From the NCBI GenBank assembly GCA_028282585.1, contig JANQHR010000052.1:1-64000 (forward strand): a stretch of 64,000 nucleotides of DNA, given 5' to 3'. The notes beneath the pieces are model-generated. The model worked only from the letters and a program-made list of their open reading frames with translations, made no database searches and was not told the origin of the DNA. The position numbers and the translations under genes were made by a program. Source of the DNA: Bacteroidales bacterium. GTDB lineage: Bacteria; Bacteroidota; Bacteroidia; Bacteroidales; UBA12077. This document shows positions 5,985-30,610 of the stretch, piece by piece. The first letter of the stretch is position 1, and each line of letters starts with the position of its first letter.

Positions 5985-6135
5985 GGTTGTTATCAGGTTT
6001 TATCTGCAATATTTTAATAAAGTTTGTAATAAGATTTATATAACCGATATACGTGCTGTAAATAAAAATACCACATTTATATATATAATTAGCACAAAAT
6101 CTGTGTATTTTTGATATATTTGTTATAATGACAAG
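5878..6135 (+). repeat. Copy 1 of a ~255-bp direct repeat (uvrA 3' end plus downstream region)
   Basis: Aligns to 7871-8124; the last 42 bp are identical. Confidence 0.92.
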
Positions 6136-6141
6136 TTGCAG
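6094..6141 (+). promoter_or_regulatory. Candidate array promoter and attI-like entry site
   Basis: TATTTTTG (6106) and TATATTTG (6115) match the Bacteroidota -7 element TAnnTTTG; G|TT follows at 6135, where the two repeat copies diverge. Confidence 0.55.
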
Positions 6142-7055: not shown

Positions 7056-7186
7056 CACAACACTTTGTATAAGTAATGGCAGAAGATGGGGTAAATATTA
7101 AGCTTTGTATCCTGTTCAAACTGCTACCCAGTTTAACAAGAAAGTACTACACAATCTGCCATTACTCATACAATTTGCCGTTGTGC
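7056..7186 (+). repeat. Intact attC-like hairpin
   Basis: CACAAC..TTGTATAAGTAATGGCAGA / TCTGCCATTACTCATACAA..GTTGTG. Confidence 0.85.
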
Positions 7187-7215
7187 ACCATGTCAAAAAC
7201 CAATAAATCAATAAA

Positions 7216-7779
7216 ATGAATATTGAAATAAGACCTTTGACAAAAGATTTAAAAGACGATTATTTGTTTTTCTTTGATAATATGATTTTCAAAGAAAATC
7301 CTGATTGGTCAATTTGTTATTGTTACGACTATCACTTCGTTGGAGATGTAGCAAAATGTACTCGTGAATCTAATCGTTCTTCGGTAATAAATCTTATCAA
7401 TGAAAATAAGCTGACAGGTTATTTGGTCTTTGAAAATGATAAACCCATCGGATGGTGTAATGCAAATAACAGATTAAATTACCAAAGATTACTAAAAGAC
7501 TATGATTTGATTGATAATCCTGATGATAAAGTTTGTTCAATTGTTTGTTTTTTAATACATCCCGATTATAGAAGACAAGGGATTGCTCAAAAGATTCTTG
7601 AAAAAATTATTACGGATTATTCAAATAAGGACTATGATTATATTGAAGCGTATCCGAAAAAAGGAGAATTATCGTGCGAGAGAAATTTCAAAGGGCCTTT
7701 GGAATTATATAAAAGACATGATTTCAAGATAAATAAAGAGTATGATGATTATTATGTAATGAGAAAAAAATTAAAATAA
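7216..7779 (+). CDS. GNAT family N-acetyltransferase
   Basis: CFLIHPDYRRQGIA motif A, IEAYP. Confidence 0.9.
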   Translation: MNIEIRPLTKDLKDDYLFFFDNMIFKENPDWSICYCYDYHFVGDVAKCTRESNRSSVINLINENKLTGYLVFENDKPIGWCNANNRLNYQRLLKDYDLIDNPDDKVCSIVCFLIHPDYRRQGIAQKILEKIITDYSNKDYDYIEAYPKKGELSCERNFKGPLELYKRHDFKINKEYDDYYVMRKKLK

Positions 7780-7783
7780 TTAC

Positions 7784-7870
7784 GGTGCACACATTTTGGA
7801 TATTTCATAGCAGGTATGTAACGGCATGACACTTCCATCCCCCGGTCATGTCGCCCTACAGTTGACAGGA
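7784..7870 (+). repeat. Truncated attC-like element
   Basis: GGTGCACAC is complementary to GTTGTGCACC at 7180; the element is cut off by the uvrA-tail duplicate. Confidence 0.55.
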
Positions 7871-8124
7871 GAGGAAAACAAGGTGGAAAAATTGTTTTCG
7901 AAAGCACTCCGGAAGAATTAAAAAAGTTAAAGAATCCGATACAAGATATTATTTGATTGAAAAATTAAGAAGCTAAGATTGCTATAAGATTTTATCTGCA
8001 ATATTTAATAAAATTCGTAATAAGATTTATATAACCGAAATATGTGATTTATATAAAAATATTTCACTGATAACTGTTTACTACAAAATCTGTGTATTTT
8101 TGATATATTTGTTATAATGACAAG
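7871..8124 (+). repeat. Copy 2 of the uvrA-tail / attI-like direct repeat (coding part decayed)
   Basis: GAGGAAAACAAGGTGGAAAAATTGTTTTCG...AAAATTAAGAAGCTAAG...TTGTTATAATGACAAG. Confidence 0.92.
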
Positions 8125-8276
8125 CCGTATGCAAGCTGAAGAGCAAGGCCTACCAACATTAGTAAACTAATTTAAAAAAAGAAAATTAAACATCGTGACT
8201 CTCCAACAAGTCGGTGCTGAATTGATAAAATGGTATGGTAAATGATTGAAAATTAATATGAACTGAATGAACGCCA

Positions 8277-8478
8277 GCATACAACAATAAATATACCCAA
8301 TACTACGTTCAGAGGGTTAGGCAACGCTTGTAGCACTTGGGTTATACCGCCAAATCGTATCGATTTGACTATTTGATTAAAGGAAAATTTACAGTAAAAT
8401 CGGCACTCTTTGGTTCATCGCAAATTTGGAAGTATCTTACCTTTGATTGCGGCACTTGGCATATTCGAGACGTTAGGC
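8277..8478 (+). repeat. Long degenerate attC-like element
   Basis: Starts GCATACAAC and ends GTTAGGC just before the next gene. Confidence 0.6.
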
Positions 8479-8497
8479 ATTATTAAAAAGTGTAACA

Positions 8498-9475
8498 TTG
8501 AATAATAGAATTTATAATATGAGAGCAATTGAAAAAATAGAAAATAAGGATTTTAATTTAACAGATGTTGAGATTATCGAATTATTAAGTATAGATGCTT
8601 ATACTAATGACTTTTATAGGTTGTTATCAGTATCTAATGAATTAACAAGGAATAAATTTAAGAATAAAGGTTATGTCTTTACTCAAGTAGGAATTAATGC
8701 AGCACCCTGTTCAGTTAATTGTCGATTTTGTTCATTGGGTGCCGACCATTATTCAGTAGACTCAAAGTGGGAGAAGGATGTAGATACATTAATTAAGGAA
8801 TTAAAAGTATTAAATGAATATCATTTTGATGACTTTTTCCTAATGACAACAGCAGATTATTCTATCGATAAATACTTGGAAGTATCAAAACAGATAAAGC
8901 CTCTACTAAAAGAGAATCAAAAATTCATAGCCAATATTGGTGATTTTGACATTGAGATAGCCAAACGCTTAAAGTCTGTTGGCTTTACTGGTGTTTATCA
9001 TATTAACAGATTACGAGAAGGTCAAGACACGTTAGTCACTACTGAACAAAGAGAAAAAAGTATAGCTTCTGCTCAAGCTGTAGGCTTAGAAATTTACTAT
9101 TGTATAGAACCCATTGGCCCAGAACATAGTTATGAAGAATTACTTGAAGAAATTAAACGCGCACGTGATTTGAAGATTTCAGTAATGGCTGTAATGCGCA
9201 GAACTCCAGTTGTTGGCACTCCATTGAACGAATTAGGGCAAATTACTGCAATAGAAATGACTAAAATTGCCGCAGTAACAAATATTGTTGTCAATCCATC
9301 ACGCTCGATGAATGTTCATGAGCCTACACAGATGTCATTGCTTGCAGGAGTAAATCAACTTTATGCAGAACTTGGAGCAAACCCAAGAGATTGTAATAGT
9401 GAAACAGAAAAAAGTCGTGGCTTCACCCCGCTTAAAGCATGGGAAATGTTAAGGGAAGCTGGCTATAACAAGTAA
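8498..9475 (+). CDS. Radical SAM protein, biotin synthase-like superfamily (likely start 8519)
   Basis: CSVNCRFC (CxxxCxxC), YCIEPIGPEH, GANPRD. Confidence 0.85.
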   Translation: MNNRIYNMRAIEKIENKDFNLTDVEIIELLSIDAYTNDFYRLLSVSNELTRNKFKNKGYVFTQVGINAAPCSVNCRFCSLGADHYSVDSKWEKDVDTLIKELKVLNEYHFDDFFLMTTADYSIDKYLEVSKQIKPLLKENQKFIANIGDFDIEIAKRLKSVGFTGVYHINRLREGQDTLVTTEQREKSIASAQAVGLEIYYCIEPIGPEHSYEELLEEIKRARDLKISVMAVMRRTPVVGTPLNELGQITAIEMTKIAAVTNIVVNPSRSMNVHEPTQMSLLAGVNQLYAELGANPRDCNSETEKSRGFTPLKAWEMLREAGYNK

Positions 9476-9478
9476 AAC

Positions 9479-9534
9479 AATGGCTAACATTTTGTAAAAG
9501 TAATGGCAGAAGATGGGGTAAATATTAAGGTTTG
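9479..9534 (+). repeat. Left half of an attC-like element, nearly identical to the 7056 element
   Basis: AATGGCTAAC, then 43/46 identity of 9489-9534 to 7062-7107. Confidence 0.85.
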
Positions 9535-9575
9535 CCAGAACAGTCGCGATCCCCTATAAATCATCCGAACAGAAC

Positions 9576-9616
9576 CGACCGCAAGGTCGTGAAAGTTCGA
9601 ATCTTTTCCAGGGTAC
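9576..9616 (+). pseudogene. 3' half of a tRNA (Leu-type, long variable arm)
   Basis: GACC-GCAA-GGTC variable arm, GAAAG-TTCGAAT-CTTTT T-arm, CCAGGGTA acceptor strand; 5' half absent. Confidence 0.65.
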
Positions 9617-9618
9617 AA

Positions 9619-9659
9619 AAAAAAACTCCCGACTGATTTAATTCGGTTGGGAGTTTTTT
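9619..9659. terminator. Bidirectional intrinsic terminator
   Basis: AAAAAACTCCCGACTGA...TCGGTTGGGAGTTTTTT. Confidence 0.75.
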
Positions 9660-9696
9660 ATTTATTCATTTTTTTAGAACAAACTGGATAATGCAT

Positions 9697-10707
9697 TTAA
9701 AAAATCTTTTTTTCTTTTAATATTTTCACCCGTTTCACCATTTTACTAAAATCCTTTTGGTATTGCCTATTCTTCTCAGTTTTACGACGATTTAAAAAGG
9801 CAAGTTCTTTTTTTAAGTGCAAATAGCTATCGTAGCGTTCCGGACTGATATTGCCTTTCTCTAATTCAGATTGCACTGCACAACCTGGCTCTCCTTCGTG
9901 CTGACAATCGTTGAATTTACAATACTGTGCAATTTCTGAAATATCTGTAAAAGTATTATCTAAAGCCTCATCCTCTGCCCACAGCTGAACTTCCCTTAAG
10001 CCGGGCGAATCAATAATATACCCCCCACTCTCCAGTTCAAACATAAACGAGGCAGATGTCGTATGTCGCCCTCTTTTATCTTTCTGTCTTATCTCGTTGG
10101 TTTTTTGCAGATCTTCTTTTAACAAACAATTTGTAAGCGTTGATTTACCAACACCCGAAGGTCCGATAAATACACCTGCTTTCCCATTTGATAAATAACT
10201 TTCAATTGCAGCAATACCTCTTCCATCCTCAACACTGGTTGTTAAAACATCAACACCGGGAGCAATGGTTTCGGCTTGATATTGAACAAACTCAGCTTCA
10301 TCGTTAAGGTCAGCTTTGTTTAATACAATTAGCGGAGTAGCACCACTATCCCAGGCAATGGCAGTTAATCTCTCCAGTAACCTGTCGGAGTAATTACGTC
10401 CACCATCTAAACCTAAAACAATCACTACATAATCAATATTAGCTGCTAATACTTGCTCTTCGGTAGTAACACCTGCTGTTTTCCTGCTTATTTGAGTTTT
10501 TCTTTCCAGCACTTTTTCTATCTGAACCAAATTCTCGTACTCGTTAAATTCCACCCAATCGCCAACACAAGGAAATTCGCTTTTATTTTGTATTGTCTGA
10601 AAATATTTTCCTTTCAGCTTAGCTTGTTTAATATCTGTTCCAATTTGTATTTTGTAGGTATCATATTGTTTTTCTACAATGCAACCTTTTTTATTATTTG
10701 TATACAT
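9697..10707 (-). CDS. rsgA: Ribosome small subunit-dependent GTPase A (accessory paralog type)
   Basis: Circularly permuted GTPase: NKAD, GPSGVGKST, GRHTT, DSPG; Zn site CKFNDCQHEGEPGC. Confidence 0.92.
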   Translation of the reverse strand: MYTNNKKGCIVEKQYDTYKIQIGTDIKQAKLKGKYFQTIQNKSEFPCVGDWVEFNEYENLVQIEKVLERKTQISRKTAGVTTEEQVLAANIDYVVIVLGLDGGRNYSDRLLERLTAIAWDSGATPLIVLNKADLNDEAEFVQYQAETIAPGVDVLTTSVEDGRGIAAIESYLSNGKAGVFIGPSGVGKSTLTNCLLKEDLQKTNEIRQKDKRGRHTTSASFMFELESGGYIIDSPGLREVQLWAEDEALDNTFTDISEIAQYCKFNDCQHEGEPGCAVQSELEKGNISPERYDSYLHLKKELAFLNRRKTEKNRQYQKDFSKMVKRVKILKEKKIF

Positions 10708-11122
10708 CTTCTCCTCCTTTCTCCATACTTATTTTATGTAAAGTCGAAATCATTGTTTTTGATGGAAATGGTAACGACATCAATGGTTCTGCTGCCATTG
10801 TAAGTAATAGCAACTCGTTATCATCAGCTGCAATCCGATTTAGCTTGATGGTATGGCACTTGGTGCATCGATGAATGATCGACCATTCTTTATTTTGTTG
10901 AACGTAAATGCTTATTGGTTTCATTATTCCCCTGCAACTCGCTCGTCGGTCGCCGGGTATTATGTCCACATGAATGCTACATAAGCAATGAGGACAGTGA
11001 TTTCTTTGTTTCCCACCAAACTCTACAGGAGGTACAGCCTTTCCACAAGAGGCACAGATAAATGACTCCATAGGATTTTCATGTATTATTTTATTACGTG
11101 ACATTTTTTTTGCGTTAAGCAC
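10694..11122 (-). CDS. RNHCP domain protein
   Basis: FICASCG, QRNHCPHCLCSIHVDIIPGDR, HRCTKC. Confidence 0.92.
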   Translation of the reverse strand: MLNAKKMSRNKIIHENPMESFICASCGKAVPPVEFGGKQRNHCPHCLCSIHVDIIPGDRRASCRGIMKPISIYVQQNKEWSIIHRCTKCHTIKLNRIAADDNELLLLTMAAEPLMSLPFPSKTMISTLHKISMEKGGEDVYK

Positions 11123-11247
11123 AATTACTAATTGAGTTTAGCAATTTAGCCAATATAAACACTAAGAATATTTATATAGAAATAACTCTGGCAAGAATTT
11201 GCCTGAGTACAAATGGAATAATCAAAGTCTGTTACAACAATGATTAT

Positions 11248-11280
11248 TTACTTAACACGAACCAGAATAGTCTTAATCAT
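11248..11280 (-). CDS. Putative leader peptide MIKTILVRVK
   Basis: 10-codon uORF between the TATATTTG promoter and the RNHCP gene; ends in R-V-K (+X+). Confidence 0.5.
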   Translation of the reverse strand: MIKTILVRVK

Positions 11281-11298
11281 CAAATAATTTTACGACCG

Positions 11299-11306
11299 CA
11301 AATATA
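11299..11306 (-). promoter_or_regulatory. Bacteroidota sigma-A -7 element
   Basis: TATATTTG on the minus strand upstream of the uORF-RNHCP-rsgA unit. Confidence 0.55.
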
Positions 11307-11457
11307 CATTTTTTTTGATAAATCTCCTTTTTTACAAAACTTTTGAAGATTATTATAGAAAACCTAATTAAATTCGTGACTGGAAAGTATTTTATCTCTA
11401 GTGTTTTATAAAAATAGAAATTGTAATCGCAAAAGAAGAGATAGTTAAAAGATAGAG

Positions 11458-11643
11458 ATGGAAGCATATAGGGAATTTATGGAAAGATATATAACTTTGA
11501 CAAGCAATAATTGGATGACAATTCAACAAGAATTTACTCGAAAAGAAATTTCAAAAAATGCTTCACAGAAAGAATGTGTTGATGCTGAAAGTTTATAGAA
11601 AGAGAAACTCGGAACGAGAACATTCGGATTGAATAAAAATTAA
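11458..11643 (+). pseudogene. GIY-YIG nuclease-like C-terminal remnant
   Basis: ...AESL*KEKLGTRTFGLNKN* with an in-frame TAG; 5' part missing; followed by an attC-like site. Confidence 0.55.
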
Positions 11644-11653
11644 AAAAATACGT

Positions 11654-11765
11654 GTGGTAACAAAGTGTATAAAACATGCCAAGTGCAGTACAAACCTGAA
11701 ACGTATATGCCCGCTACTACCGTCTCCGAAGACTGCCACGTTTCATATCGCTAATTGTTGGGTGT
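11654..11765 (+). repeat. attC-like hairpin
   Basis: GTGGTAAC-AAAGTGTATAAAACATG / CACGTTTCATATC..GTTGGGTGT. Confidence 0.7.
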
Positions 11766-11841
11766 AATGTAACGTAGGCACGATGCTAAATTGGATACAT
11801 ACGAAAACAAATAATCTAAGAGATAAGAAAATTGCATCATA

Positions 11842-12696
11842 GTGAAAAGGAAAGAACTTAAAATAGTTAAAGCACTGACGAATGTGAATGACAAAAAACG
11901 TATTGTCTTAAATGATATAGGTTGGACTAGCCGTGTTTACATTATAGATGATGGCGAATATGTTTTTAAATTTTTAAAAAATAAAAAATATCAAGAGGAA
12001 CTTGAACACGAAATAAATATTTTGAAGCTAATAAAAAATCACAAATTCAACATAAATATTCCCTTAATCGGTTGGGTTGGAAAAGATAACGCATACATAG
12101 GTTTCAAAGGAGTGACAGGAAAGTCAATGACAACAGAAATAATAAATGAATTAAATGAAGAACAAAAGAGAAAAATAGGCGCACAAATCGGAATCTTCAT
12201 AAAAAAGCTTCATGCCATAGACTATCATGGTAAAAGCCCAAACAGCGAAAGTAATGTAATTGAATGGTTTCAGGAATCGTTTTGCAAAAAAAAGCGCACA
12301 TTGAAAAAATACTTTAATAAAAATGAACTTGCATCCATTGAAAAACTTTTAACAAGCTTGCCGGAAAAGTCTGCAAAATATGGGATAGAAGAAGTTTTTT
12401 GCCACGGCGATTTAGGCTACAATAATATCATACTATCCGACAATCTTGAAGTCGGGATAATTGACTTTGGCGATGCAGGCAATCTTGACAAGTCGTATGA
12501 CTTTATTGGTTTAGAAGATGATGTTATACTTGATGCGGCAATATTAGCATATGGTGGCGATAATGTTTTAAGGGAAAAAGTTGCAATAAGGCGGCAGTTA
12601 TTACCACTTATGGAAATGTTATTTTTGATTGACAGGAATGAAAAGGTAGAAATTGAAAAGTGTGCACGTAAAATGCGCGTTAATTTAAAAAACTGA
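11842..12696 (+). CDS. Aminoglycoside phosphotransferase (APH)-family kinase
   Basis: YVFKF, HGDLGYNN (Brenner motif), IIDFGDA. Confidence 0.88.
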   Translation: MKRKELKIVKALTNVNDKKRIVLNDIGWTSRVYIIDDGEYVFKFLKNKKYQEELEHEINILKLIKNHKFNINIPLIGWVGKDNAYIGFKGVTGKSMTTEIINELNEEQKRKIGAQIGIFIKKLHAIDYHGKSPNSESNVIEWFQESFCKKKRTLKKYFNKNELASIEKLLTSLPEKSAKYGIEEVFCHGDLGYNNIILSDNLEVGIIDFGDAGNLDKSYDFIGLEDDVILDAAILAYGGDNVLREKVAIRRQLLPLMEMLFLIDRNEKVEIEKCARKMRVNLKN

Positions 12697-12716
12697 CAAA
12701 GTAGACAAAACAAACT

Positions 12717-12816
12717 GCACTCAATATGTGTAATCCATAAAGGTTTCAGAGGTTTTCGAGCGTATTTATCCACTATAAATTTGGTTAGTAACTTGACACG
12801 CTTAAAGCTCTCAATA
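12717..12816 (+). repeat. Truncated attC-like element of the same subfamily as 22006
   Basis: Shares CATAA.GGTTTCAG.GGTTTTCGAGCGT...AACTTGA...GCTCTC with 22016-22110. Confidence 0.7.
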
Positions 12817-12894
12817 GTTTGTTTGTCATATATTTAACGTTTTTTATAGAATATACAAATTGAGAATATAAACACAGTGACTTAATAAATATAA

Positions 12895-13809
12895 ATGAAT
12901 AAGAGTACTACAATATTAAAATACACATCAGATATTAACAGGGTGTTTGACTATATTGAGAAAAACATAAGAAAAGATATTGAATTGGAACAACTCACCG
13001 AGGTTGTCAATATGTCAAAGTATCATTTTATAAGAATTTTTAAGTCAGTTATGAACGAAACGCCTATGGCTTTTGTACAACGTATTCGATTAGAACGAGT
13101 AGCTTCACAATTGGTAAACAAACCAAATGAAAGCATTACCAATATAGCTCAAGAGTATAATTATGATAATATGACAGTGTTTGCTAAAAACTTTAAAATG
13201 CGATTCGGCATATCTGCAACGGAATGGCGTAAAAATAGCAATAAAAGCAAACTAAATAGCAATAATGAAATACTAGCAAATGAATTTTCAGCATATTTTT
13301 GTGATCATTCACAAACAATTAAATGGAGGACAGATATGTTACAAAACAAAACTATCGTGGTAAATGAATTTCCTATTATGACAGTTGCTTATGTAAGGCA
13401 TACCGGACAAAATGACGGTGATGTAGCGTTATATAAAGGTTTGCAAAATAAACTCTTTACTTGGGCTGCAAGTAGAAACCTGTTGAATGTAAATTCTAAG
13501 TACATTATAATTTACCACGATGACCCTAACGTGGTACCAGCAGAAAAACAACGAATGAGTCTATGTCTTACTATTCCTTCTACAACTAAAGTAGATGGTG
13601 ATATTGGGAAAATGGAGGTTCAAGGAGGAAAATACGTTGTAGCAAGGTTCGAATTAAAATCAGATGAGTTTCATTTGGCATGGAAGTATATAATGGATTG
13701 GTTTCCAAAGAGTGGTTATAAACCAAGAAACGAACCCCCTTTTGAGATGTACCCTGAAGAGCCAATAGCTGACAATTTTAAGGTAGATATTTGCATTCCG
13801 ATAGATTAA
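12895..13809 (+). CDS. AraC family regulator with a GyrI-like effector domain
   Basis: N-terminal double HTH (MSKYHFIRIFK...RIRLE); C-terminal GGKYVVARF, DWFPKSGY, DICIPI. Confidence 0.92.
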   Translation: MNKSTTILKYTSDINRVFDYIEKNIRKDIELEQLTEVVNMSKYHFIRIFKSVMNETPMAFVQRIRLERVASQLVNKPNESITNIAQEYNYDNMTVFAKNFKMRFGISATEWRKNSNKSKLNSNNEILANEFSAYFCDHSQTIKWRTDMLQNKTIVVNEFPIMTVAYVRHTGQNDGDVALYKGLQNKLFTWAASRNLLNVNSKYIIIYHDDPNVVPAEKQRMSLCLTIPSTTKVDGDIGKMEVQGGKYVVARFELKSDEFHLAWKYIMDWFPKSGYKPRNEPPFEMYPEEPIADNFKVDICIPID

Positions 13810-13989
13810 TCAACTTATAAAGAATGATAACTGAAACAAGATACTTAAGTGAAGTTGTTAAAACACAGGCAAACAATGATAAATTATTCATATACGATAT
13901 AAATTACTTTGGATTACTCATAGAGAAAGAAGGTAACCAAATTTTAGTATAAAGAAATAAAGATTTACTAAGAAGATATGAACTAAAAT

Positions 13990-14122
13990 CAGGTGCTAAA
14001 AATGCACATAACTAGGCAAAACAGTATTAGTTTCAAAAGTATATAGCCCGCTTCAAAATTGTAACGGATTGATTAGTTTGAAGCTCGCAATCGCTTACTT
14101 TCCATATAATCAACTTTGGCTG
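13990..14122 (+). repeat. Degenerate attC-like element
   Basis: GGTGCTAAAAATG...TTGA...GCTCGCAATC...CCATATAATCAACTTTGGCTG; the body resembles the 12717 and 22006 elements. Confidence 0.5.
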
Positions 14123-14173
14123 TAATTAACGCAACCTTTTCGGTTAATTGACATCTATTAAAAAACAAGAATT

Positions 14174-14590
14174 ATGAAATCAAAGATTTTAATTTTAGTC
14201 TCATTAATACTTTTTATAAGTTGTGATAATGATGAAGAAAGCAATTTAACTCAAATCCCGGATGGTACTTACACCGGAATCTTTACTGTGGAATATTCTA
14301 ATGGAATGACATATTCCAACTCTGTAACAATCAATTTTTCTGAATCTAATAGTTATAAGAGTAGTGGAAATGGAAATATAAATGACTTCTATCCGGCTGG
14401 TGGAAGTGGAACTTATGAAATGAAAGGTTCTAAAATCTCTTTCTATGACATCAATACTTGGTTGGCTCACTTTGACTGGAATCTTATTCTTAGTGGAGAA
14501 TACGATTATTTGATGAATGGTAGTCAATTGACTATCTCTGCTTATAAGAATGATGTGGGATTTTATAAATATGAGCTGACAAAAGAATAA
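14174..14590 (+). CDS. Hypothetical lipoprotein
   Basis: Lipobox FISC followed by an acidic stretch. Confidence 0.75.
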   Translation: MKSKILILVSLILFISCDNDEESNLTQIPDGTYTGIFTVEYSNGMTYSNSVTINFSESNSYKSSGNGNINDFYPAGGSGTYEMKGSKISFYDINTWLAHFDWNLILSGEYDYLMNGSQLTISAYKNDVGFYKYELTKE

Positions 14591-14712
14591 CTACGATCAA
14601 TACGGTATATAAAAATTAGCGGTTTAAGTGATAAAACAATAGAATAAACATAAAGCAAAACTGAAAAGTAAAGTCATTAAATCCGCTAATTTTCATATAC
14701 AAGACCTTCGCA
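14591..14712 (+). repeat. attC-like hairpin
   Basis: GTATATAAAAATTAGCGG (14605) / CCGCTAATTTTCATATAC (14683), 17/18 complementary. Confidence 0.8.
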
Positions 14713-14803
14713 CAACATTAACGACAAGACCATAACAACGATAAGAAGAAAATTTATTAAAAGATTAGTATTATCTTGGGATTAGATAACTGATAGATAA
14801 AAC

Positions 14804-15097
14804 ATGAAAAAGTTAAATGCATACGACTATTATTTAATAGCTAGTCTGTTATACTGGATTTTTATAATGTATCGGTTATCCTCCAGAGAATACCTCGAAA
14901 TGGGTGATACATTTAGTTTCTTTATTTATTCTTTTTTTGTAATTATTCATTCTATAGTTTTAATTTTTAGGTTTTTACTTAGAAATAGAAAAATAGGATT
15001 GAGACTGGTTATCGGTGTATCAATTTTACCTTCCGTAGCTACAGGAATATTTATGATGATTTCAATATTTTTTGGAATCATTTCATTATCAAAATAA
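14804..15097 (+). CDS. Small membrane protein
   Basis: Three hydrophobic segments. Confidence 0.6.
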   Translation: MKKLNAYDYYLIASLLYWIFIMYRLSSREYLEMGDTFSFFIYSFFVIIHSIVLIFRFLLRNRKIGLRLVIGVSILPSVATGIFMMISIFFGIISLSK

Positions 15098-15114
15098 TAA
15101 GGTAGAAGATGCAT

Positions 15115-15150
15115 GAGCACAACAATGTATAAAAAACAGGCATAATGTTG
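15115..15150 (+). repeat. Left-end remnant of an attC-like element
   Basis: GAGCACAACAATGTATAAAAAAC. Confidence 0.5.
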
Positions 15151-15155
15151 GCAAA

Positions 15156-16319
15156 GTGAAAAAAAAGCAATTCATCAAAGTCTTAAGGAACTTGGGTTTA
15201 GGATTGCCGTCTGACAGCTTTTCAAACAACCGCAGAAAATTTAAAGATAAAGCCTTTTCAGGTACTGTGCTTATTGTTGGTGCTGGTGCTGCCGGTATGT
15301 ATGCAGGTTATCTACTAAAGCAAAAAGGAGTTAGTTTTAAGATTATTGAGGCAAGCTCACAAATTGGAGGAAGAATGAAAACCAATCATTCATTTACCGA
15401 CTTCCCCATTGCGTTAGGTGCAGAGTGGATTGCCAAGCTCAATCCTAAATTTGGTGACATCATAGAAGCGAAAGAAGCATTTAAAAAATTACCAAAAGCA
15501 AGTTACGCTGCTGACGATACATATGGAACCTGGCGCAAGGGAAAACTAACTATAGATATACTAGGATTTTTCAATTATAAAAAGTTCATAAATAATTCTT
15601 GGCTGGGATTTTTCCAGGAATTCATCGCCCCCACCATTCGGGAAAACATCGTGTTTGACACACCTATCCGTTTGATAGATTATTCAGGGCAACAAGTTTC
15701 GGTCCAATCGGACAAAAAGCAATACACAGCTGATCGATTGATATTTACTGCACCCGTATCCTTAATTCAAGATGAAAGCATCCGTTTTGCTCCCGCTTTA
15801 CCTCAGAAAAAACAAGAGGCTATTCAGAATACAGTCGTTTGGGATGGTTTTAAGGCATTTTTTGCATTCGAAAAGAAGTTTTATCCTTCATTTGTTGACT
15901 ATACCATCTATCCGAAAAAATCCGGACAAGTTTCTTTGTATGATGCTGCGCATGGCCAGAAAAGTAATAAGAACATCCTCGGACTTTTTTCAGTGGGTCT
16001 TCCGGCAAAAAAGTACGCCAGCCTTAATGAAGCAGATTTCAAAAGAGAAATTCTGGTTGAACTTGACCATATATTTGATGGACAGGCTACCAAATATTAC
16101 ATCAATCATATCACACAAAACTGGTCTAACGAACCTTTTGCAAAAGGAGCTTATGTGAACGATTATGCGAGTCAGAAGTTCAATACGCAATTACAGAAAT
16201 CAGTAGCTCATAAGATTTACTTTGCGGGAGATTCTTACATTGCCGGATCTGACTGGGGCAATGTACATAATGCAATAGAATCAGCCGTGCAAAGTATTAA
16301 AGAAGTTCTATCTAAATAA
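15156..16319 (+). CDS. Flavin-dependent amine oxidase family protein
   Basis: VLIVGAGAAG...EASSQIGGR, GAEW, WSNEPFAKGAY, IYFAGD. Confidence 0.88.
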   Translation: MKKKQFIKVLRNLGLGLPSDSFSNNRRKFKDKAFSGTVLIVGAGAAGMYAGYLLKQKGVSFKIIEASSQIGGRMKTNHSFTDFPIALGAEWIAKLNPKFGDIIEAKEAFKKLPKASYAADDTYGTWRKGKLTIDILGFFNYKKFINNSWLGFFQEFIAPTIRENIVFDTPIRLIDYSGQQVSVQSDKKQYTADRLIFTAPVSLIQDESIRFAPALPQKKQEAIQNTVVWDGFKAFFAFEKKFYPSFVDYTIYPKKSGQVSLYDAAHGQKSNKNILGLFSVGLPAKKYASLNEADFKREILVELDHIFDGQATKYYINHITQNWSNEPFAKGAYVNDYASQKFNTQLQKSVAHKIYFAGDSYIAGSDWGNVHNAIESAVQSIKEVLSK

Positions 16320-16444
16320 CTGCTTCGAACTTGATTTTTAATAGAATAAATGAGTTAAGGTTAAATTGGTAAATAAAAATAATGAATAAAGAGCAGCCAA
16401 TGTTGAGAGTCAATGCTTTATTGGCTAGAAAACAAAAGTGAAAG

Positions 16445-16530
16445 CCGCACAATATTGTTTATAAACAAAGCGGATTTGGTGCTTTCCGAACGATAAAATT
16501 TTAACCAAAAGTCAGTGCTATTTAGAAGTT
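16445..16530 (+). repeat. Truncated attC-like element
   Basis: CCGCACAATATTGTTTATAAACAAAGCGG... Confidence 0.45.
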
Positions 16531-16895
16531 GGTTGAAATCCAGTAATGATAATAAACGAACTGATAAAGAAAGCAACCTAATTTAGTTGAATAATATTCA
16601 TAATTGGAAGAACACCCTTAGTGAAAATTATAAAAGCAAATAAAACATTTGGATCTTTCTTACCCTTAATTGAAGCAACAATTAAATAGTTCTAATTGAC
16701 AAAACACCCAATGCATAAAAATGTGTCATACTTTACCAGGATAGTTAATGGCTATTTGGCAAATATTGCTATCTTTAAAACTAATTAACCACTAACAGGG
16801 AACCACAGTTTTAATCGCAGACAAAGTATATCCAAAAAATGTTGGAAACCATTTGGCATATGAATTTCTAAACTTGAAAACTATAAAATAAAGAT

Positions 16896-18359
16896 ATGCA
16901 AAATCTGGAATTACTATTGCTCATAGCAACTTTTGTTTACATAGGATTTAACCGCCTTATAAACAAAAATCTCTTTAAGCTTTATTTAATCGGTCTGCTG
17001 GCAATTATTCTATCCATCCACCTGATATTTGATGGTCTTCGATGGCAAATGATCCCGGCATACTTAATCTGGCTTATCGCTCTGATAACTGCACTAAAGG
17101 AATTTAGACGAAGGTCTTCAACTACAATTAGGGTTTTCAAGATCATCGGTCTAATAATCCTGTTAGCCCTGGCGATTTTACTTCCCTCCCTCCTGCCGGT
17201 ATTTGAACTACCTAAAGCCAAAGGTCCATTCGCAGTGGGAACAAAGGACATATTTCTTGAACTGGATAGGGAAGAAGTAATTACTGCTGATAAGACTGAT
17301 ACAAGAAGCTTAATGATAAAAGTATGGTATCCGTCAAAAGAAACCGGTGAAGAAATGGATCTCTATGTCGATATAGCGGGGAGAAATGGTTTTGCTCAAA
17401 AATATGGGCTTCCACCTTCTATGCTCAATTATTTAAATAAAGTAAAAACAAACGTTTACAGAAACATTCATGTAGCAGATGAGTCTTTCCCTGTTCTGAT
17501 ATTTTCCCACGGCTACAATTCAAAAGCAAATGGTTATTATGCATTATTGTCAGAGTTAGTAAGTCAAGGATACATAGTATTTGCAATTAACCATACGTAC
17601 GAAAGCACCGGAACTACATTTCCTGATGGTACCCTAAAATATTTTGATTATGAATATGCAAGTCAAATTGAATCAGGTACATGGGACATAATAGAGCCTG
17701 TAATTGAAGCGTTTAAAAGTGACCTTTCATTTGAAGGTCGGCATCCAATTGTGCAAAAAGGTCTAACCACATATTTTGTAAGGGATATGGTTGAACGTTG
17801 GGCAGAGGACATTGTGGATGTTGTGAACAAATTAGATGAATGGAACGATAACGGATTCTTTAAAGGAAAGTTAGATTTATCCAATGTTGGCGTTTTGGGA
17901 CATTCCAGAGGTGGTGGAGCAGCAGGAGAATCCTTGTTAATTAATAGCAAAATCAAAGCTGGAGCGAATATTGACGGAGTCCAATGGGGACAGATAGTTG
18001 ATACCGTATTTCAGAAGCCCTTTCTTTTTTTGTCAGCAGATTGGCCTGAAGAACATGAGAATTTAAATCAACATGCGTATGTGAATAAAAGTACATTCGT
18101 TTTCTATGAAGCTATTGTTTTTCAAACTGGTCATAGTAATTTTATGGATATTCCTTATATGATTCCGTTAAATGCTTTAAGTCAGGCAGGAACTATCGAT
18201 CCTGATTTGGCAATTGAAATTACAAGTAAGGTTGTTACCTCCTTTTTTGACAAACACTTGAAGAATAAAGAAATAGATTTGAATGCCTTAAACTCGGAAT
18301 ATGAGATGCTTGAAATTAATATCTTCCAAGGAGATTCCATAACTTCAATAATGAATTAA
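16896..18359 (+). CDS. Membrane-anchored alpha/beta hydrolase (PAF-acetylhydrolase-like)
   Basis: N-terminal TM helices, FSHG, GHSRGG nucleophile, NIDG, GHSNFMD. Confidence 0.88.
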   Translation: MQNLELLLLIATFVYIGFNRLINKNLFKLYLIGLLAIILSIHLIFDGLRWQMIPAYLIWLIALITALKEFRRRSSTTIRVFKIIGLIILLALAILLPSLLPVFELPKAKGPFAVGTKDIFLELDREEVITADKTDTRSLMIKVWYPSKETGEEMDLYVDIAGRNGFAQKYGLPPSMLNYLNKVKTNVYRNIHVADESFPVLIFSHGYNSKANGYYALLSELVSQGYIVFAINHTYESTGTTFPDGTLKYFDYEYASQIESGTWDIIEPVIEAFKSDLSFEGRHPIVQKGLTTYFVRDMVERWAEDIVDVVNKLDEWNDNGFFKGKLDLSNVGVLGHSRGGGAAGESLLINSKIKAGANIDGVQWGQIVDTVFQKPFLFLSADWPEEHENLNQHAYVNKSTFVFYEAIVFQTGHSNFMDIPYMIPLNALSQAGTIDPDLAIEITSKVVTSFFDKHLKNKEIDLNALNSEYEMLEINIFQGDSITSIMN

Positions 18360-18494
18360 GCTTTGAATAATCAACTTTTAAGAAACTGTAAAAATGAAAG
18401 ATAAAAAATAAGAGCAAGCAAGTTAGGACTGCATACTTTTAGTGATACGCGTCATAAACAAAACATTTCTAAACTAACAAAACGCAAAGTTAAA

Positions 18495-19004
18495 GTGTAT
18501 ATAAACATAGAAACAGAAAGATTAATAATAAGGCCACTAAGTTTGGAGGATGCCGAATTTATAGTTGATTTGGTTAATTCTGAGGGCTGGCTGAAATTTA
18601 TAGGAGATAGAAATATTTCTGATAAAAATGATGCAAGAAACTACATTCAAAAGATACTTGATAACGCAAATTTTTATTACAATGTTTTTGAGTTAAAAAA
18701 AACACGAAAGGCTATTGGAATAGTAACATTTCTCAAACGAGATGATGAGAAATTCCCTGACATTGGATTTGCTTTATTGCCTGAATTTGAAAAAAACGGA
18801 TATACCCTTGAGGCAAGTAAGTCGTATCTTGAGAAAATAGAAAACTCAAACAAATACGACAATATAATTGCAATCACTATGCCGGACAATCAAAAATCGA
18901 TTAACTTGTTACAGAAGCTTGGATTTCATTATGTAAATAGTTACGAAAAAGGTGGAGAGATTTTATCTTACTATACTTTAAAAAATGTAAAAGCCACCAA
19001 GTAA
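18495..19004 (+). CDS. GNAT N-acetyltransferase (RimJ/RimL type)
   Basis: IETERLIIRP, DIGFALLPE, NQKSINLLQKLGF. Confidence 0.9.
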   Translation: MYINIETERLIIRPLSLEDAEFIVDLVNSEGWLKFIGDRNISDKNDARNYIQKILDNANFYYNVFELKKTRKAIGIVTFLKRDDEKFPDIGFALLPEFEKNGYTLEASKSYLEKIENSNKYDNIIAITMPDNQKSINLLQKLGFHYVNSYEKGGEILSYYTLKNVKATK

Positions 19005-19064
19005 CAATATATATGCGAAAATAAAAGTATATTAATCCGTAACTGACTTTTATACGAAGTAGTT

Positions 19065-19901
19065 TTGTACAACCTCAGAACGAACTTTAACAATATAGTT
19101 ATGATTGAGAATAAACAAGTTTATTATCCTAGTATAGGGCAAAGCTGGGGAATTGTTGGATTAGCAATACTTTCCATGTTATTATTTAGCCCCGTAAATA
19201 TTATACTAACCAATATATTAGGAAAGGAAGTATCTTTTTTAGTTTATTACTTATTAGCAATGGGAGTTCCTTTTGGCATTGCTCATTTGATAAGAAATAA
19301 AAGAACAGGGATTAATAATTACAATTTTAATCTTAGTTCTATAAAATTAATGGTATTAGTTTCTATCTCTACAATTTCAATTCAGACCGGAGTAATTTCA
19401 CCAATCGTTAATTCATTACCCATGCCAGAGTTTATGAAAAAGATATTTCTAGAATTTGCAAATCAAAACGGAGTATTTTCTTTTATAGCAATTGTTATTG
19501 CCGCACCAATAATTGAAGAATTGATTTTTAGAGGAATTATTCTAGATGGACTTTTACGAAGATATTCTCCAGTTAAATCAATCATTTTATCAAGTATTCT
19601 TTTCGGAATCGTTCATCTAAACCCTTGGCAGTTCGTTAGCGCTTTGATTATTGGGTTATTTTCAGGTTGGATTTATTATAGAACAAAAAAATTATCACTA
19701 TCAATCTTAATTCATTTAATAAATAACCTTGTTGCCTTTTTAGGAATATATTTTATGGATATAGAAATAATGATCAATGAATCACTAACAAAATTGTATG
19801 GTGGTTTTACAAACATGATTTTAATTACTATTGGATCAATATTAGTGTCAATAATAGGTATTTTTATATTGAGAAAAGAATTTAATGGTTTGAAAAATTA
19901 A
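19065..19901 (+). CDS. CPBP/Abi family intramembrane metalloprotease (likely start 19101)
   Basis: PIIEELIFRG, FGIVH, HLINN. Confidence 0.92.
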   Translation: MYNLRTNFNNIVMIENKQVYYPSIGQSWGIVGLAILSMLLFSPVNIILTNILGKEVSFLVYYLLAMGVPFGIAHLIRNKRTGINNYNFNLSSIKLMVLVSISTISIQTGVISPIVNSLPMPEFMKKIFLEFANQNGVFSFIAIVIAAPIIEELIFRGIILDGLLRRYSPVKSIILSSILFGIVHLNPWQFVSALIIGLFSGWIYYRTKKLSLSILIHLINNLVAFLGIYFMDIEIMINESLTKLYGGFTNMILITIGSILVSIIGIFILRKEFNGLKN

Positions 19902-19909
19902 TAAATGGT

Positions 19910-20044
19910 AGCGCATAATGGACAATAAAAAACATATTACAGATAGTGCTAATTTAAAGGACATTACATTTAATAAATAATGCAACAAGTTGATAGGGAA
20001 TTGCTTTGAATTGCCAAACGGTTCATATACTTAACCTTAGCGAT
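19910..20044 (+). repeat. Degenerate attC-like element
   Basis: Ends GGTTCATATAC-TTAAC-CTTAGCGAT, complementary to ATCGCTAAC at 20878. Confidence 0.6.
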
Positions 20045-20075
20045 TATATAGAAACTAAATCATAAAAAAAATGAA

Positions 20076-20885
20076 ATGAAAAAAATATTATTAATTGCAT
20101 TGTTAGTTATTTTATTTAATTCCACGTATGCACAGTTTTCATTGGATCATTACCATCCTGTTGATATTATTAAAACGGAGGGTATTGATTCTTGCTCAAT
20201 ATATGTTTTACAACCCGATAGTTCATTGACTATTGAACAATCTTATATCTATAATCTTAAAGGCTTAGAGATCGAGAATAAAAGAGATTTTCAGAATTTT
20301 TCATTTATATATGAATATAATGAAGAAGGAATAAAGGTTGCACAATTTTTTGTTCCTTTTGGAGAAGGTTATTTTGAGCGAGATACATTAATCTATGATA
20401 AAAAAGGCAGGCTAATACAAAAAATTACGTATTCATCAGATGGTAAAGAATCTAAAAGAAATGAATATGATTATAAAAAAAGATTAATAAAAGAAGAGCG
20501 ATATATCCTGAAAGGAAAATTACAAACAAAATCATTATACAGATATAATAAAAAAAAGAGGATCAAGAAAATTGAAAAGTATTTTAGAGGTAAACACCAA
20601 GAAGATTGGATTCATGAATATGATAGTGATAATAATTTAATTTCATTTATTACAATTTCTACCAACGGAGATACAACGCTTCGACATAATTTTAATTACA
20701 ATAAAAGTGGTTTGAGAATTAAACATTCAATTTATTTACAAGGAAACAGGCTCTCGACGATATTTTTAACTACATATGACAAAAAAGGATTAATTTCATA
20801 TATGGAAGCAATAACTGGCATAAAAAACAATGATCCAAAAACAGGCGAATATGAAAAAACAATTTATAAATATACATATCGCTAA
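20076..20885 (+). CDS. Secreted protein with YD-like repeats
   Basis: Signal peptide; repeated Y.YD/N..G motifs; stop codon lies inside GCTAAC. Confidence 0.7.
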   Translation: MKKILLIALLVILFNSTYAQFSLDHYHPVDIIKTEGIDSCSIYVLQPDSSLTIEQSYIYNLKGLEIENKRDFQNFSFIYEYNEEGIKVAQFFVPFGEGYFERDTLIYDKKGRLIQKITYSSDGKESKRNEYDYKKRLIKEERYILKGKLQTKSLYRYNKKKRIKKIEKYFRGKHQEDWIHEYDSDNNLISFITISTNGDTTLRHNFNYNKSGLRIKHSIYLQGNRLSTIFLTTYDKKGLISYMEAITGIKNNDPKTGEYEKTIYKYTYR

Positions 20886-20900
20886 CACATTTTAGTAGTT
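20878..20900 (+). repeat. Collapsed attC-like site (outer boxes only)
   Basis: ATCGCTAAC-ACAT-TTTAGTAGTT. Confidence 0.55.
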
Positions 20901-20918
20901 ATTTAAAAACCAGATCAA

Positions 20919-22001
20919 ATGAGCTATTCAAAATTTTTAGATGATTGGAGTAAAGTTCGGGAAGAATACTTGGAAAAAAACCCAACTGAAAATGTTCCTT
21001 GGGACCTGACGGAAGCTATGACGAGAGATAAATGGATAGCTGAAAAAAAGTTCGATGAATTTGTTGCCTATGTTCTTGAAAATTATGATTCCGGAAATTG
21101 TATTGATTTAATCACACCCTTTGGTAATCATCTAATTGAGATCAAGGAATATAACTTATTCAAAAAAATCTGGAAAGGAGTCATTAGAATTAATATATCT
21201 ACTTTGTGGGATTATGTGCATAATATGCTGATTGATTTTCCGAATGCGACATCGGTTGATATAAATAAAATTAAAATAACAGATAAGTTAATCGAAGATT
21301 TTGAATTACGTCCCGGAAAAGCTTTTGCAAATGAGAAAAATGCAGTTGCATATAAACGCTATTATACTTTAAAAGCATTATCAGAATTTATTAACGGATT
21401 AGAAAGATTCAATGATGAAAATGAAATTTCCAAAATGCGTTTGATTATTGAAAATGTTCAAAATCTTCAAAAACCCACACCAACTAAATCCACGGATAAA
21501 AGAAAAATAGATGAAAAGCTTTTCTGGGAATTAATAACAATTTCAAGAGAAGAATCAGAAGATAAATTTGAGTTTATTGAAATATTGACAGATAAACTAT
21601 CTGCATTTAAACCCAATGAAATAAGAAAATTCGCACGAATTTTTGAAACCAAATTTCAAGAGCTAAATACTTGGGATAACTGGGCATTTGTATATATCGT
21701 TCGACGAGGTTGCGGGGATAATGAATTTGATTATTTTAAAGCATGGGTAATTTCAAAAGGACAAGAAACTTTCAATAAAGTAAAGGAATTCCAACAAAAG
21801 GATTTTAAAGAATTAATTGGGTTAGATGATCCGCAATTAGAAGAGATGCTTTATCTTGCAGAGGAAGCTTATGAATTAAAAACAAGTGAGCTAATGACAC
21901 CCATAAGGGTGAAAAAACAAAATATATCTGGCACAAAATGGACAGAAGAAAAGGTTTGCGAGATATTTCCAGAGATTTGTAAACAATTTAATTATAAATA
22001 A
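20919..22001 (+). CDS. DUF4240 domain protein
   Basis: DEKLFWELI, GCGDNEFDYFKAWVISKG in the C-terminal half. Confidence 0.75.
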   Translation: MSYSKFLDDWSKVREEYLEKNPTENVPWDLTEAMTRDKWIAEKKFDEFVAYVLENYDSGNCIDLITPFGNHLIEIKEYNLFKKIWKGVIRINISTLWDYVHNMLIDFPNATSVDINKIKITDKLIEDFELRPGKAFANEKNAVAYKRYYTLKALSEFINGLERFNDENEISKMRLIIENVQNLQKPTPTKSTDKRKIDEKLFWELITISREESEDKFEFIEILTDKLSAFKPNEIRKFARIFETKFQELNTWDNWAFVYIVRRGCGDNEFDYFKAWVISKGQETFNKVKEFQQKDFKELIGLDDPQLEEMLYLAEEAYELKTSELMTPIRVKKQNISGTKWTEEKVCEIFPEICKQFNYK

Positions 22002-22005
22002 TAAC

Positions 22006-22150
22006 AACTGCTAATTATGTGTTTAATTCATAAGGGTTTCAGTGGTTTTCGAGCGTTATCGCCCACATTAATTTTAGTGCGAAACTTGATTGGTTTACGC
22101 TCTCCAATAAAATACCTCACGGAATCATATACTCGTCGGATGGTAACAAT
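22006..22150 (+). repeat. attC-like hairpin
   Basis: AACTGCTAAT..GTGTTTAATTCATAAGG / CCTCACGGAATCATATAC. Confidence 0.7.
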
Positions 22151-24095: not shown

Positions 24096-24205
24096 TACGC
24101 CATATACATGTGTAAAAATAATAGCCCGTCCAATAGTAAATTCAAAGATTTTAGCCCATGGCAATTTTCCTGTACCTTGACAAATTCGGCTGTTATTCTT
24201 ATAAT
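24096..24205 (+). repeat. Degenerate attC-like element
   Basis: TGTAAAAATAATAGCC / GGCTGTTATTCTTATA inverted repeat directly after the gene. Confidence 0.5.
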
Positions 24206-24256
24206 GAACTTCACTATTTTGACGGCTTTAAAGACAACCTTAAAATATAACAACAA

Positions 24257-30601: not shown

Positions 30602-30610
30602 GCTGATTTA

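Follow-up and report, generated by a model that had tools for sequence, protein, structure and literature searches.

A probable decayed integron-type cassette array in a Bacteroidales chromosome, and Xer-like recombinases as candidate integrases of its lineage

The first 64,000 nucleotides of contig JANQHR010000052.1 (Bacteroidales bacterium, GenBank assembly GCA_028282585.1), which we refer to as the window, contain a run of genes whose ends appear complementary, raising the question of whether these genes are integron cassettes or ordinary neighbours in AT-rich DNA. A first-pass annotation had proposed the former for 7180..22015, claiming that the two ends of each cassette pair as they would in a circular excised unit and that the genes entered by crossover at G|TT. 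We found that the segment from 5985 to ~30650, which is larger than the one proposed, is very probably a chromosomal integron-type cassette array that has decayed, lying between uvrA and a convergent gene at 30700, and that it belongs to an integron lineage departing from the textbook definition in its integrase. The complementarity is real, yet within chance if taken alone; its interpretation as cassette structure is right, being supported by site families, covariation, pairing between successive sites, and attI junctions in relatives and in the genome itself. Comparisons were made with 37 genomes of one genus (given G-numbers), most of which are metagenome-assembled genomes (MAGs); G008 is a single 4.6-Mb contig at 99% completeness.

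To find what the window shares with its relatives, a 16-kb DNA search of the genus was carried out, and the conserved pieces proved to be intergenic hairpins, not genes. Family A (window 7059-7182) had 13 homologues in 11 genomes, with unrelated flanks, and family B (window 13998-14117) had 10 homologues in the genus; in both families conservation begins exactly at an AAC and stops exactly at a GTT, and only this core is common. A hairpin scan of contigs from the relatives and the own genome yielded 55 AAC...GTT elements of 100-135 nt (mostly 121-128 nt), in arrays of up to 9. We aligned 46 of these sites, none of them from the window, and built a covariance model, R1, from the alignment. RNAalifold gave 16 consensus pairs for the 46 sites, 15 of which carried compensatory changes, with a nearly invariant AAC and GTT, i.e., the imperfect palindrome between R'' and R' boxes, with inner L''/L' stems and a structure better conserved than its sequence, that characterises attC sites. 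The consensus structure also contains asymmetric internal loops. A plain energy scan for AAC...GTT hairpins was set aside as too noisy: it gave dozens of hairpins within coding DNA (-14 to -23 kcal/mol), and 7059-7182 was the one site to stand out.

With filters switched off, R1 scanned the whole window and returned nine matches at E<=0.002, each of them intergenic, on the plus strand and within 7059-28555:

7059..7182, plus strand: attC-like site of family A with intact AAC...GTT (R1 77.2 bits, E=1.7e-14; inverted repeat I2)
11659..11759, plus strand: attC-like site keeping both AAC and GTT (R1 26.8 bits, E=0.0011)
12723..12841, plus strand: attC-like site of family C, AAT...GTT (R1 33.2 bits, E=4.3e-5; homologue in G014)
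13998..14117, plus strand: degenerate attC-like site of family B, AAA...TTT (R1 38.8 bits; family B alignment)
14599..14708, plus strand: attC-like site, AAT...CTT (R1 37.0 bits; inverted repeat I4)
19921..20038, plus strand: attC-like site, GAC...CTT (R1 25.9 bits, E=0.0017; homologue in G022)
22013..22140, plus strand: degenerate attC-like site of family C (R1 32.7 bits)
24105..24211, plus strand: degenerate attC-like site, TAC...CTT (R1 33.8 bits)
28440..28555, plus strand: degenerate attC-like site resembling family A, AAA...TTT (R1 26.5 bits; nhmmer E=2.2e-8)

The next-best matches were 16451-16565 (16.4 bits, E=0.17) and a truncated site at 9486. Outside the island bounded below, no R1 match in the 64 kb was better than E=1.6, and no Rfam family matched in 5500-25000. 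In the own genome as a whole, which holds intact sites on other contigs, R1 found at least 21 sites at E<=1e-3, many at 50-88 bits, on small contigs or contig ends (four on C70; two each on C64, C85 and C77; others on C34, C33, C166, C170, C165, C122, C103 and C44), a lower bound given that 150 of ~3160 candidates were scored. Sites of this type occur in 34 of the 37 genomes of the genus, with counts reaching at least 77 (at least 52 in G008), again as lower bounds, with 96 candidates scored per genome.

The strongest evidence that these sites delimit cassettes comes from asking which flanks pair with each other. If the hairpins were self-contained repeats, the flanks of one hairpin should pair with each other or not pair at all, whereas in attC sites the bases after GTT should pair with those before the AAC of the next site. 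For the first set of sites, we took those of the hairpin scan, in which flanks had not been used for calling. Between a site and the next one (n=35) the mean was 7.03/9, with 29 perfect 6-mers and 34 at >=5/6, whereas flanks of the same hairpin (n=55) scored 3.00/9, flanks paired with the preceding site (n=35) 2.91/9 and unrelated pairs (n=2900) 3.02/9 (perfect 6-mer 0.34%, >=5/6 2.4%, >=7/9 1.7%). The next-site mean was reached by 0 of 200,000 resamples (p<=5e-6, a value to be read with the kinship of the sites in mind, as they are not independent). This set takes in contig C70 of the own genome, with four cassettes at 5-7/9; its lone bad value, 1/9, involves a doubtful site in L128. The second set consisted of R1-defined sites in arrays of G003, G008, G015 and G046, where the GTT was located before scoring, R1 ending one base short for many G008 sites. 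The outcome was the same: 6.97/9 with 32 perfect 6-mers for next-site pairs (n=36), 3.59/9 with none for the same hairpin (n=41), and 3.5/9 with 27 perfect 6-mers for other pairs (n=1604). Next-site pairing is thus an unambiguous rule in intact arrays and constitutes the circular-cassette signature. It also bears out the proposed crossover at G|TT, the next-site 6-mers being exact reverse complements in 29 of 35 cassettes of the first set and in 32 of 36 of the second. In the relatives' arrays (e.g., L125, L132, L140, L147) the boxes have the shape A-(C/T)-N-N6-AAC ... GTT-N6'-N-(A/G)-T, i.e., six bases perfectly paired and a recurrent mismatch two positions further out.

The same comparison bears on a reading in which the hairpins are terminators or self-spreading repeats akin to repetitive extragenic palindromes (REP) or miniature inverted-repeat transposable elements (MITE), and the genes between them ordinary neighbours. 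Dispersal of the elements over many loci of the genus would fit such repeats, as would strong hairpins just past stop codons, but same-hairpin flanks at 3.0/9 against next-site flanks at 7.0/9 are not what a self-contained palindrome predicts; moreover, the elements lack a T-run, their conservation ends exactly at AAC and GTT, and arrays start at a G|TT site beside a tyrosine recombinase gene. We therefore regard this reading as extremely improbable, and take the hairpins to be attC-like sites.

Where does the array begin and end? In five relatives of the same genus (G007, G008, G015, G016, G023), tblastx places uvrA within tens of bases of the homologue of window 30700-32179. Because uvrA meets this homologue directly, the window's segment from 5985 to ~30650, ~24.7 kb that these relatives lack between two convergent conserved genes, is an inserted island; synteny picks up again at ~30664-30700. 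Of words sampled from 6100-16000, a fraction of 0.98 was present in sequencing run X1, marked as a possible source, and 0.05-0.16 in 19 other runs. The island's left flank, its head and a partial duplicate of that head are as follows:

3186..5984, plus strand: uvrA, conserved left flank of the island (932-aa open reading frame, ORF; 73-79% nucleotide identity in genus relatives)
5985..6137, plus strand: attI-like module, copy 1, ending TTGTTATAATGACAAG|TT (69% identical to G010:C125:707-853)
7868..8126, plus strand: second copy of the uvrA 3' end (frameshifted) and attI-like module (direct repeats D1, D3, D5 and D7, 83-96%)

The module's counterpart in G010 sits between a divergent 274-aa tyrosine recombinase gene and the first cassette, with uvrA on the other side. 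The window's module keeps ~14 codons of the deleted divergent recombinase gene (reverse strand, ~5997-6038), and the Pfam scan found no tyrosine recombinase among the island's ORFs. A promoter-like TAtaTTTG, which we take to match the Bacteroidetes -7 box, precedes the attI-like site. Another 9 loci of the genus carry related ...AACAAG|TTA sites, and in two pairs of related loci identity ends exactly there, so that in relatives the sequence is conserved up to ...AAG|TT and then diverges, as expected of attI; the window has the module without the gene. At all eight loci tested, the bases after the G|TT of attI pair with R'' of the first attC: 8/9 and 6/6 in G010, G002 and G024, 7/9 and 6/6 in G000 (C169), G008, G015 and G003, and 6/9 and 5/6 in G046. 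The duplicated unit comprises the last 115 nt of uvrA plus the module (5870-6137 and 7868-8126), and the copies are 86% identical over 258 nt, with GCC instead of GTT as the crossover triplet in the second. Together they bracket a 215-aa ORF, an intact attC, a GNAT cassette and half an attC. Some modules without a recombinase gene have an attC a few hundred bases upstream (L024 6357-6480 and 6793; L022, L023), and attI-like modules may also occur inside arrays. In L146 (G008), where the large array starts, attI and the first attC have an ORF between them (~5900-6300) that resembles IS3-family OrfA by eye.

We can now return to the complementary ends that had raised the question. All 12 quoted strings were located where they had been reported, and we re-scored the six pairs as 9-mers and 6-mers adjoining the GTT and AAC triplets, with anchors from R1, nhmmer or module homology. 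The scores were 8/9 and 6/6 for 7182->7791 (GNAT cassette, assuming that one A of its AAC was deleted), 7/9 and 6/6 for 8126->8283 (an ORF-less mini-cassette, 8127-8282), 7/9 and 5/6 for 8474->9486 (radical SAM-like cassette), 6/9 and 4/6 for 11759->12723 (APH cassette, the weakest of the six), 6/9 and 6/6 for 20038->20884 (ORF 20076-20885), and 7/9 and 5/6 for 20893->22013 (DUF4240 cassette). The claim that each cassette has such ends therefore holds for these six pairs and does not extend to the rest of the ~20 genes.

Several observations weigh against reading the island as a cassette array. Four defined junctions fail (attI copy 1->7059 at 4/9, 12841->13998 at 2/9, 14117->14599 at 5/9 and 22140->24105 at 2/9), about 10 gene junctions in the window have no significant site, and only two of the nine sites (7059-7182 and 11659-11759) keep both AAC and GTT. 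The remaining seven (12723, 13998, 14599, 19921, 22013, 24105 and 28440) have lost one triplet or both and score 26-39 bits, the rest of each being still largely alignable. The peptide of the recombinase remnant is a weak match (6/14 identical, E=7.9). The relatives that supply the pairing rule are kin and may share cassettes, meaning that the 71 cassettes are not independent events. Finally, permutation tests within the window, in which the upstream region of each of 20 genes was compared with its own and every other gene's downstream region, gave no signal: the best complementary 10-mer averaged 8.25 for own pairs and 8.19 for others (p=0.38), the longest complementary run gave p=0.49, and 7-mers anchored at TT/AA averaged 5.1/7 for own pairs and 5.2 for others (p=0.84). 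The first-pass annotation had offered shuffled pairings as the yardstick for its claim, and measured in this way, at the level of the window, the claim fails.

Could the six pairs then be nothing more than the ordinary 8-9/10 matches that occur everywhere in the AT-rich intergenic DNA of the window, with no cassettes at all? The permutation results, unanchored and anchored alike, would suit this explanation, as would the 6/9 and 4/6 of the pair at 11757/12717 and the fact that off-diagonal gene pairs attain 9-10/10 as often as own pairs. Against it, the anchors fall on sites that R1, trained on other genomes only, recovers; perfect 6-mers make up three of the pairs, compared with 0.34% among unrelated pairs; and the same rule governs 29 of 35 and 32 of 36 cassettes elsewhere. 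Chance is accordingly contradicted as the whole explanation, which we consider exceedingly improbable, although it may still hold for single pairs. What gives the six pairs meaning is solely that at least one anchor of each falls on a site delimited independently, either by homology or by the covariance model. In AT-rich DNA complementary end pairs alone are no evidence, and yet ends picked by eye can mark real cassette boundaries even in a decayed array.

The island appears to have lost its recombinase gene; elsewhere, tyrosine recombinase genes stand at array heads in two architectures. The short type (G010 type) is divergent from the cassettes, and in many loci the sequence upstream of it is conserved up to a terminal G|TTRRRY and diverges past it. 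A query of this type retrieved 42 loci in named records, from Bacteroidales, Flavobacteriales, Cytophagales, Saprospiraceae, Lacinutrix, Flavobacterium, Bernardetia, Bacteroides neonati, Ignavibacteria, Melioribacter, Balneola and others. R1, which was trained on one genus, has 30 matches there, of which 27, spread over 14 loci, are upstream of the gene and on the opposite strand; the remaining 3 lie elsewhere, in 2 loci. Among full-length loci (>=40% identity, >=2 kb of upstream sequence), 13 of 22 have an upstream match.

Of the 36 other genomes of the genus, 25 have the long type (C169 type, 366-402 aa) at E<=1e-25. In all four loci with enough downstream sequence (G003, G008, G015, G046) the gene is followed by a same-strand array, with a total of 41 R1 matches, every one on the plus strand; G045 has its nearest site on the opposite strand. 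The attI of the long type, ...AACTAG|TT or ...ACAAG|TT, is conserved 130-165 nt past the stop codon, and the bases that follow it pair with the first attC at 6-7/9 in 5 of 5 loci, including the own genome's contig C169, which carries an apparently complete head (recombinase, attI, first cassette). This genome thus appears to hold one live integron, made up of C169 and fragmented arrays, in addition to the window's decayed array. An earlier reading of the 376-aa C169 recombinase as an unrelated Xer-like gene, based on arsR and housekeeping genes on its 5' side, was dropped, as the array lies 3'. Residues 1-95 of this protein (L009 2004-3134) form an N-terminal extension with no sequence match in Pfam or PDB. 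A ...AACAAGTT motif sought next to the long recombinases was not found there. A third type, of 283-293 aa and 36% identical to the G010 type, occurs in L078 (G048:C99; 590-1669) and L077 (G019:C461); the gene is divergent from, and ~80 nt away from, an attC of 110.6 bits, with no separate attI-like module, and the two loci diverge just past ...GTTCAACAA.

In alignments, both main types show the catalytic motifs (R, HxxR, H and Y); they match only PF13495 and PF00589 in Pfam, and align end to end with XerA (5hxy), the XerC-like 4a8e also being among their best solved relatives. We think it probable that these Xer-like neighbours are the recombinases acting on the sites. Two findings count against the integron reading of the arrays. 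Neither the own genome nor any of the 37 of the genus encodes a protein above the TIGR02249 cut-off (265 bits), and the intI of a complete integron, a tyrosine recombinase with the IntI-specific additional domain near patch III, was not recognised. Furthermore, compared with VchIntIA (2a3v), ~43 residues are missing between aligned blocks in both types: the G010 type has 35 residues between the blocks vs. 78 in IntI4, and the C169 type 22 vs. 65.

The main rival to Xer-like integrases is that the arrays belong to ordinary integrons whose canonical IntI is unassembled, carried on a plasmid or lost, the Xer-like proteins being bystanders. Most of the genomes are MAGs, arrays break assemblies and many sites lie at contig ends, all of which could hide such a gene, and a passage of PMC8618304 indicates that IntI can act in trans on attC clusters that have no integron integrase (CALINs). 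On the other hand, none of the 37 genomes reaches the TIGR02249 cut-off, including the single-contig G008 with its at least 52 sites, and the Xer-like genes stand at array heads beside the G|TT junction in two fixed architectures. We consider a missing IntI unlikely.

It could also be argued that the sites recombine as duplex DNA by a mechanism like that of Xer/dif (cf. pdif modules), the likeness to integrons being formal only. The recombinases are indeed closest to XerA and XerC-like proteins and lack the insertion, which in IntI reportedly contacts extrahelical bases. However, the triplet boxes lie ~115 nt apart across a covarying stem, a geometry that fits a folded strand and not a 28-bp duplex core, and the cassettes share one orientation, whereas pdif modules alternate. 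This makes a duplex mechanism very unlikely, and Xer-like proteins acting on folded attC-type sites remain the reading that we prefer.

A broader claim can be formulated, namely that Xer-like integrases without the IntI-specific insertion serve an integron lineage that is widespread in Bacteroidota and neighbouring phyla, in two architectures (short divergent and long co-directional integrase) and with more than 50 cassettes in a closed genome; for this joint reading we see the balance as even. The arrays share many features with sedentary chromosomal integrons (e.g., the Vibrio cholerae superintegron with its VCR family): long same-strand arrays of mostly single-gene cassettes, a narrow attC length class (here 121-128 nt in intact arrays) with lineage-specific families, AAC...GTT limits, G|TT crossover, an attI beside a tyrosine recombinase gene, and GNAT, APH and Cass2 cassettes. 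They differ in recombinases without the IntI insertion and below the TIGR02249 cut-off, in a long complementary R box (3+6 nt, then a conserved mismatch) and in the host, an uncultured Bacteroidales genus. 'Inverted' integrons of Treponema and Chlorobi are reported to have an integrase that is co-oriented with the cassettes and carries the IntI insertion; the C169 type likewise has recombinase, attI and array on the same strand, but lacks the insertion and has an extra N-terminal stretch of ~95 aa. Both recombinase types resemble Xer proteins (XerA, XerC/D) in aligning end to end without the IntI gap, while their presumed targets are unlike those of Xer/dif or pdif, being covarying hairpins of ~120 nt (100-130) in tens of copies per genome instead of 28-bp duplex sites with two inverted arms around a 6-8 bp spacer, one per replicon, and standing in one-directional arrays headed by attI.

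With regard to earlier work, Bacteroidota are named among the phyla with integrons in part of PMC8618304, and a section of the IntegronFinder 2.0 paper (PMC9024848) lists for Bacteroidetes nothing beyond In0 elements and a single complete integron (Salinibacter ruber), besides Chlorobi and Ignavibacteriae. Parts of a 2024 preprint count Bacteroidota among clades formerly found without integrons, and a preprint on archaeal integrons regards the additional domain as what defines IntI. A search of open-access main texts brought up neither these arrays nor an integrase without the insertion that is tied to attC arrays; they could have been described earlier, e.g., as Bacteroidota CALINs in the supplementary tables of IntegronFinder 2.0 or of MAG surveys. 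The matter is of some consequence, as both the definition of integrons and the search for them rely on an integrase that has a particular insertion. If the proposal is true, attC-type cassette capture does not require the insertion held to define integron integrases and to be essential to them, the insertion-less proteins may show an Xer-like ancestral state, and tools that depend on the insertion would either overlook such integrons or class them as CALINs. Should the Xer-like proteins be the integrases, the known range of integrons would grow, the role of the insertion in hairpin recognition would become directly testable, and a large cassette pool in marine Bacteroidota would come into view, including resistance-like families (APH, GNAT, beta-lactamase fold).

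How the array might have formed can be outlined from these observations. Each unit would once have been a small circle of one gene and one hairpin site of ~105-130 nt, 5'-AAC...GTT-3', which a tyrosine recombinase would have joined to an attI-like ...ACAAG|TT or to another attC by crossover at G|TT. Because the crossover would fall there, the first 6-9 nt of a cassette (half of R') would be complementary to the 6-9 nt before its own AAC (R''). Excision as circles and folding of one strand are reportedly established in integron biology; by analogy, circular intermediates, a folded bottom strand whose extrahelical bases would set polarity, insertion at attI and expression from the head would all apply here, and a promoter in the attI module may drive the cassettes as Pc does in integrons. 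In the window, the platform's divergent recombinase gene appears to have been deleted down to ~14 codons, some sites are truncated or collapsed, and a foreign two-gene segment lies inside one of them. With the recombinase lost and the sites degraded, the array is therefore best described as fixed and decaying. In IntegronFinder's terms (at least two attC sites, no integron integrase nearby) its nine R1 matches between 7059 and 28555 make it a CALIN; it differs from CALINs in general in that it keeps a platform remnant (the attI-like module and ~14 codons), duplicated, and in that most of its sites are degraded. Loss of intI by deletion is one origin of CALINs proposed in a passage of PMC8618304.

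The island is a run of plus-strand ORFs with accessory-type families, interrupted by one reverse-strand pair, and its gene content (GNAT, APH, Cass2 and DUF4240 in Pfam) is typical of cassettes:

6327..6974, plus strand: cassette ORF of 215 aa with no Pfam family (ORF list, Pfam scan)
7216..7779, plus strand: GNAT acetyltransferase cassette (PF00583; the opening GTT|GTGCAC is complementary to GTGCAC-A(A)C at 7785-7792)
7782..7867, plus strand: left arm of the GNAT cassette's own attC, resembling family A (ACATTTTGGATAT... vs. family A consensus ACATTTTGTATAAG)
8127..8474, plus strand: ORF-less mini-cassette (8127-8282) and long degenerate attC-like site (8283-8474); the start GTATGC pairs with GCATAC before AAC
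8498..9475, plus strand: radical SAM-like cassette (PF04055 at 28.2 bits, below the cut-off of 29.5)
9486..9535, plus strand: truncated family A attC, left half only (94% identical to 7059-7107, direct repeat D6; nhmmer E=2.7e-9)
9536..11658, minus strand: foreign segment interrupting the array, with terminator hairpin, RsgA-like GTPase and RNHCP-domain gene (Pfam)
11842..12696, plus strand: APH-family phosphotransferase cassette (PF01636)
12895..13809, plus strand: AraC-type helix-turn-helix and GyrI-like (Cass2) regulator cassette (PF06445, PF14526, PF12833), ends at 2/9
14804..19901, plus strand: five genes, for a membrane protein, amine oxidase, PAF-AH-like hydrolase, GNAT and CAAX protease (Pfam)
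20076..22001, plus strand: two cassettes, a 269-aa ORF and a DUF4240 protein (Pfam); ends pair at 6/6 and 5/6
22239..24092, plus strand: MutS2-like cassette, MutS domains III and V (Pfam)
24257..28429, plus strand: four genes, two with beta-lactamase fold (25603-26805 and 26906-28429; Pfam)
28900..30650, plus strand: last island genes, GH43-like and DUF6624, with the right end of the island (Pfam)

Several of these proteins fall into families that include antibiotic-modifying or -hydrolysing enzymes: APH (11842-12696), beta-lactamase fold (25603-26805, 26906-28429) and GNAT (7216-7779, 18495-19004).

Decay takes different forms along the array. The attC of the GNAT cassette is cut off at 7867 by the duplicated uvrA-end and attI-like module, and R1 gives only 9.6 bits to the degenerate attC-like site, at 8283-8358. 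The site at 9486 is cut at 9535 by the foreign reverse-strand segment, in which the RsgA-like GTPase occupies 9697-10707 and the RNHCP-domain gene 10694-11122, both on the minus strand. This GTPase is one of four paralogues with 33-37% identity, and G046:C24 is 90% identical to window 10682-11376. ARAGORN found no tRNA in the window; 9590-9615 resembles a 3' fragment of a tRNA. Only weak or collapsed sites lie between the five genes of 14804-19901 (16451-16565 being the 16.4-bit match given above), and R1 recognised no site between the four genes of 24257-28429. At the junction 20878-20900, ATCGCTAAC-ACAT-TTTAGTAGTT, the R''-like and R'-like boxes are only 4 nt apart, and at a second collapsed junction, 15117-15152, they are ~25 nt apart. 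Such junctions give the impression that the central hairpin was deleted, which would permanently fuse neighbouring cassettes. Finally, a MutS2-like copy, 84% identical to window 22192-24109, lies at a different locus in G016 (L036 10168-12216), with an attC (45.6 bits) directly before the gene and none after it, and the homology ends at the start of the window's attC (24105-24109).

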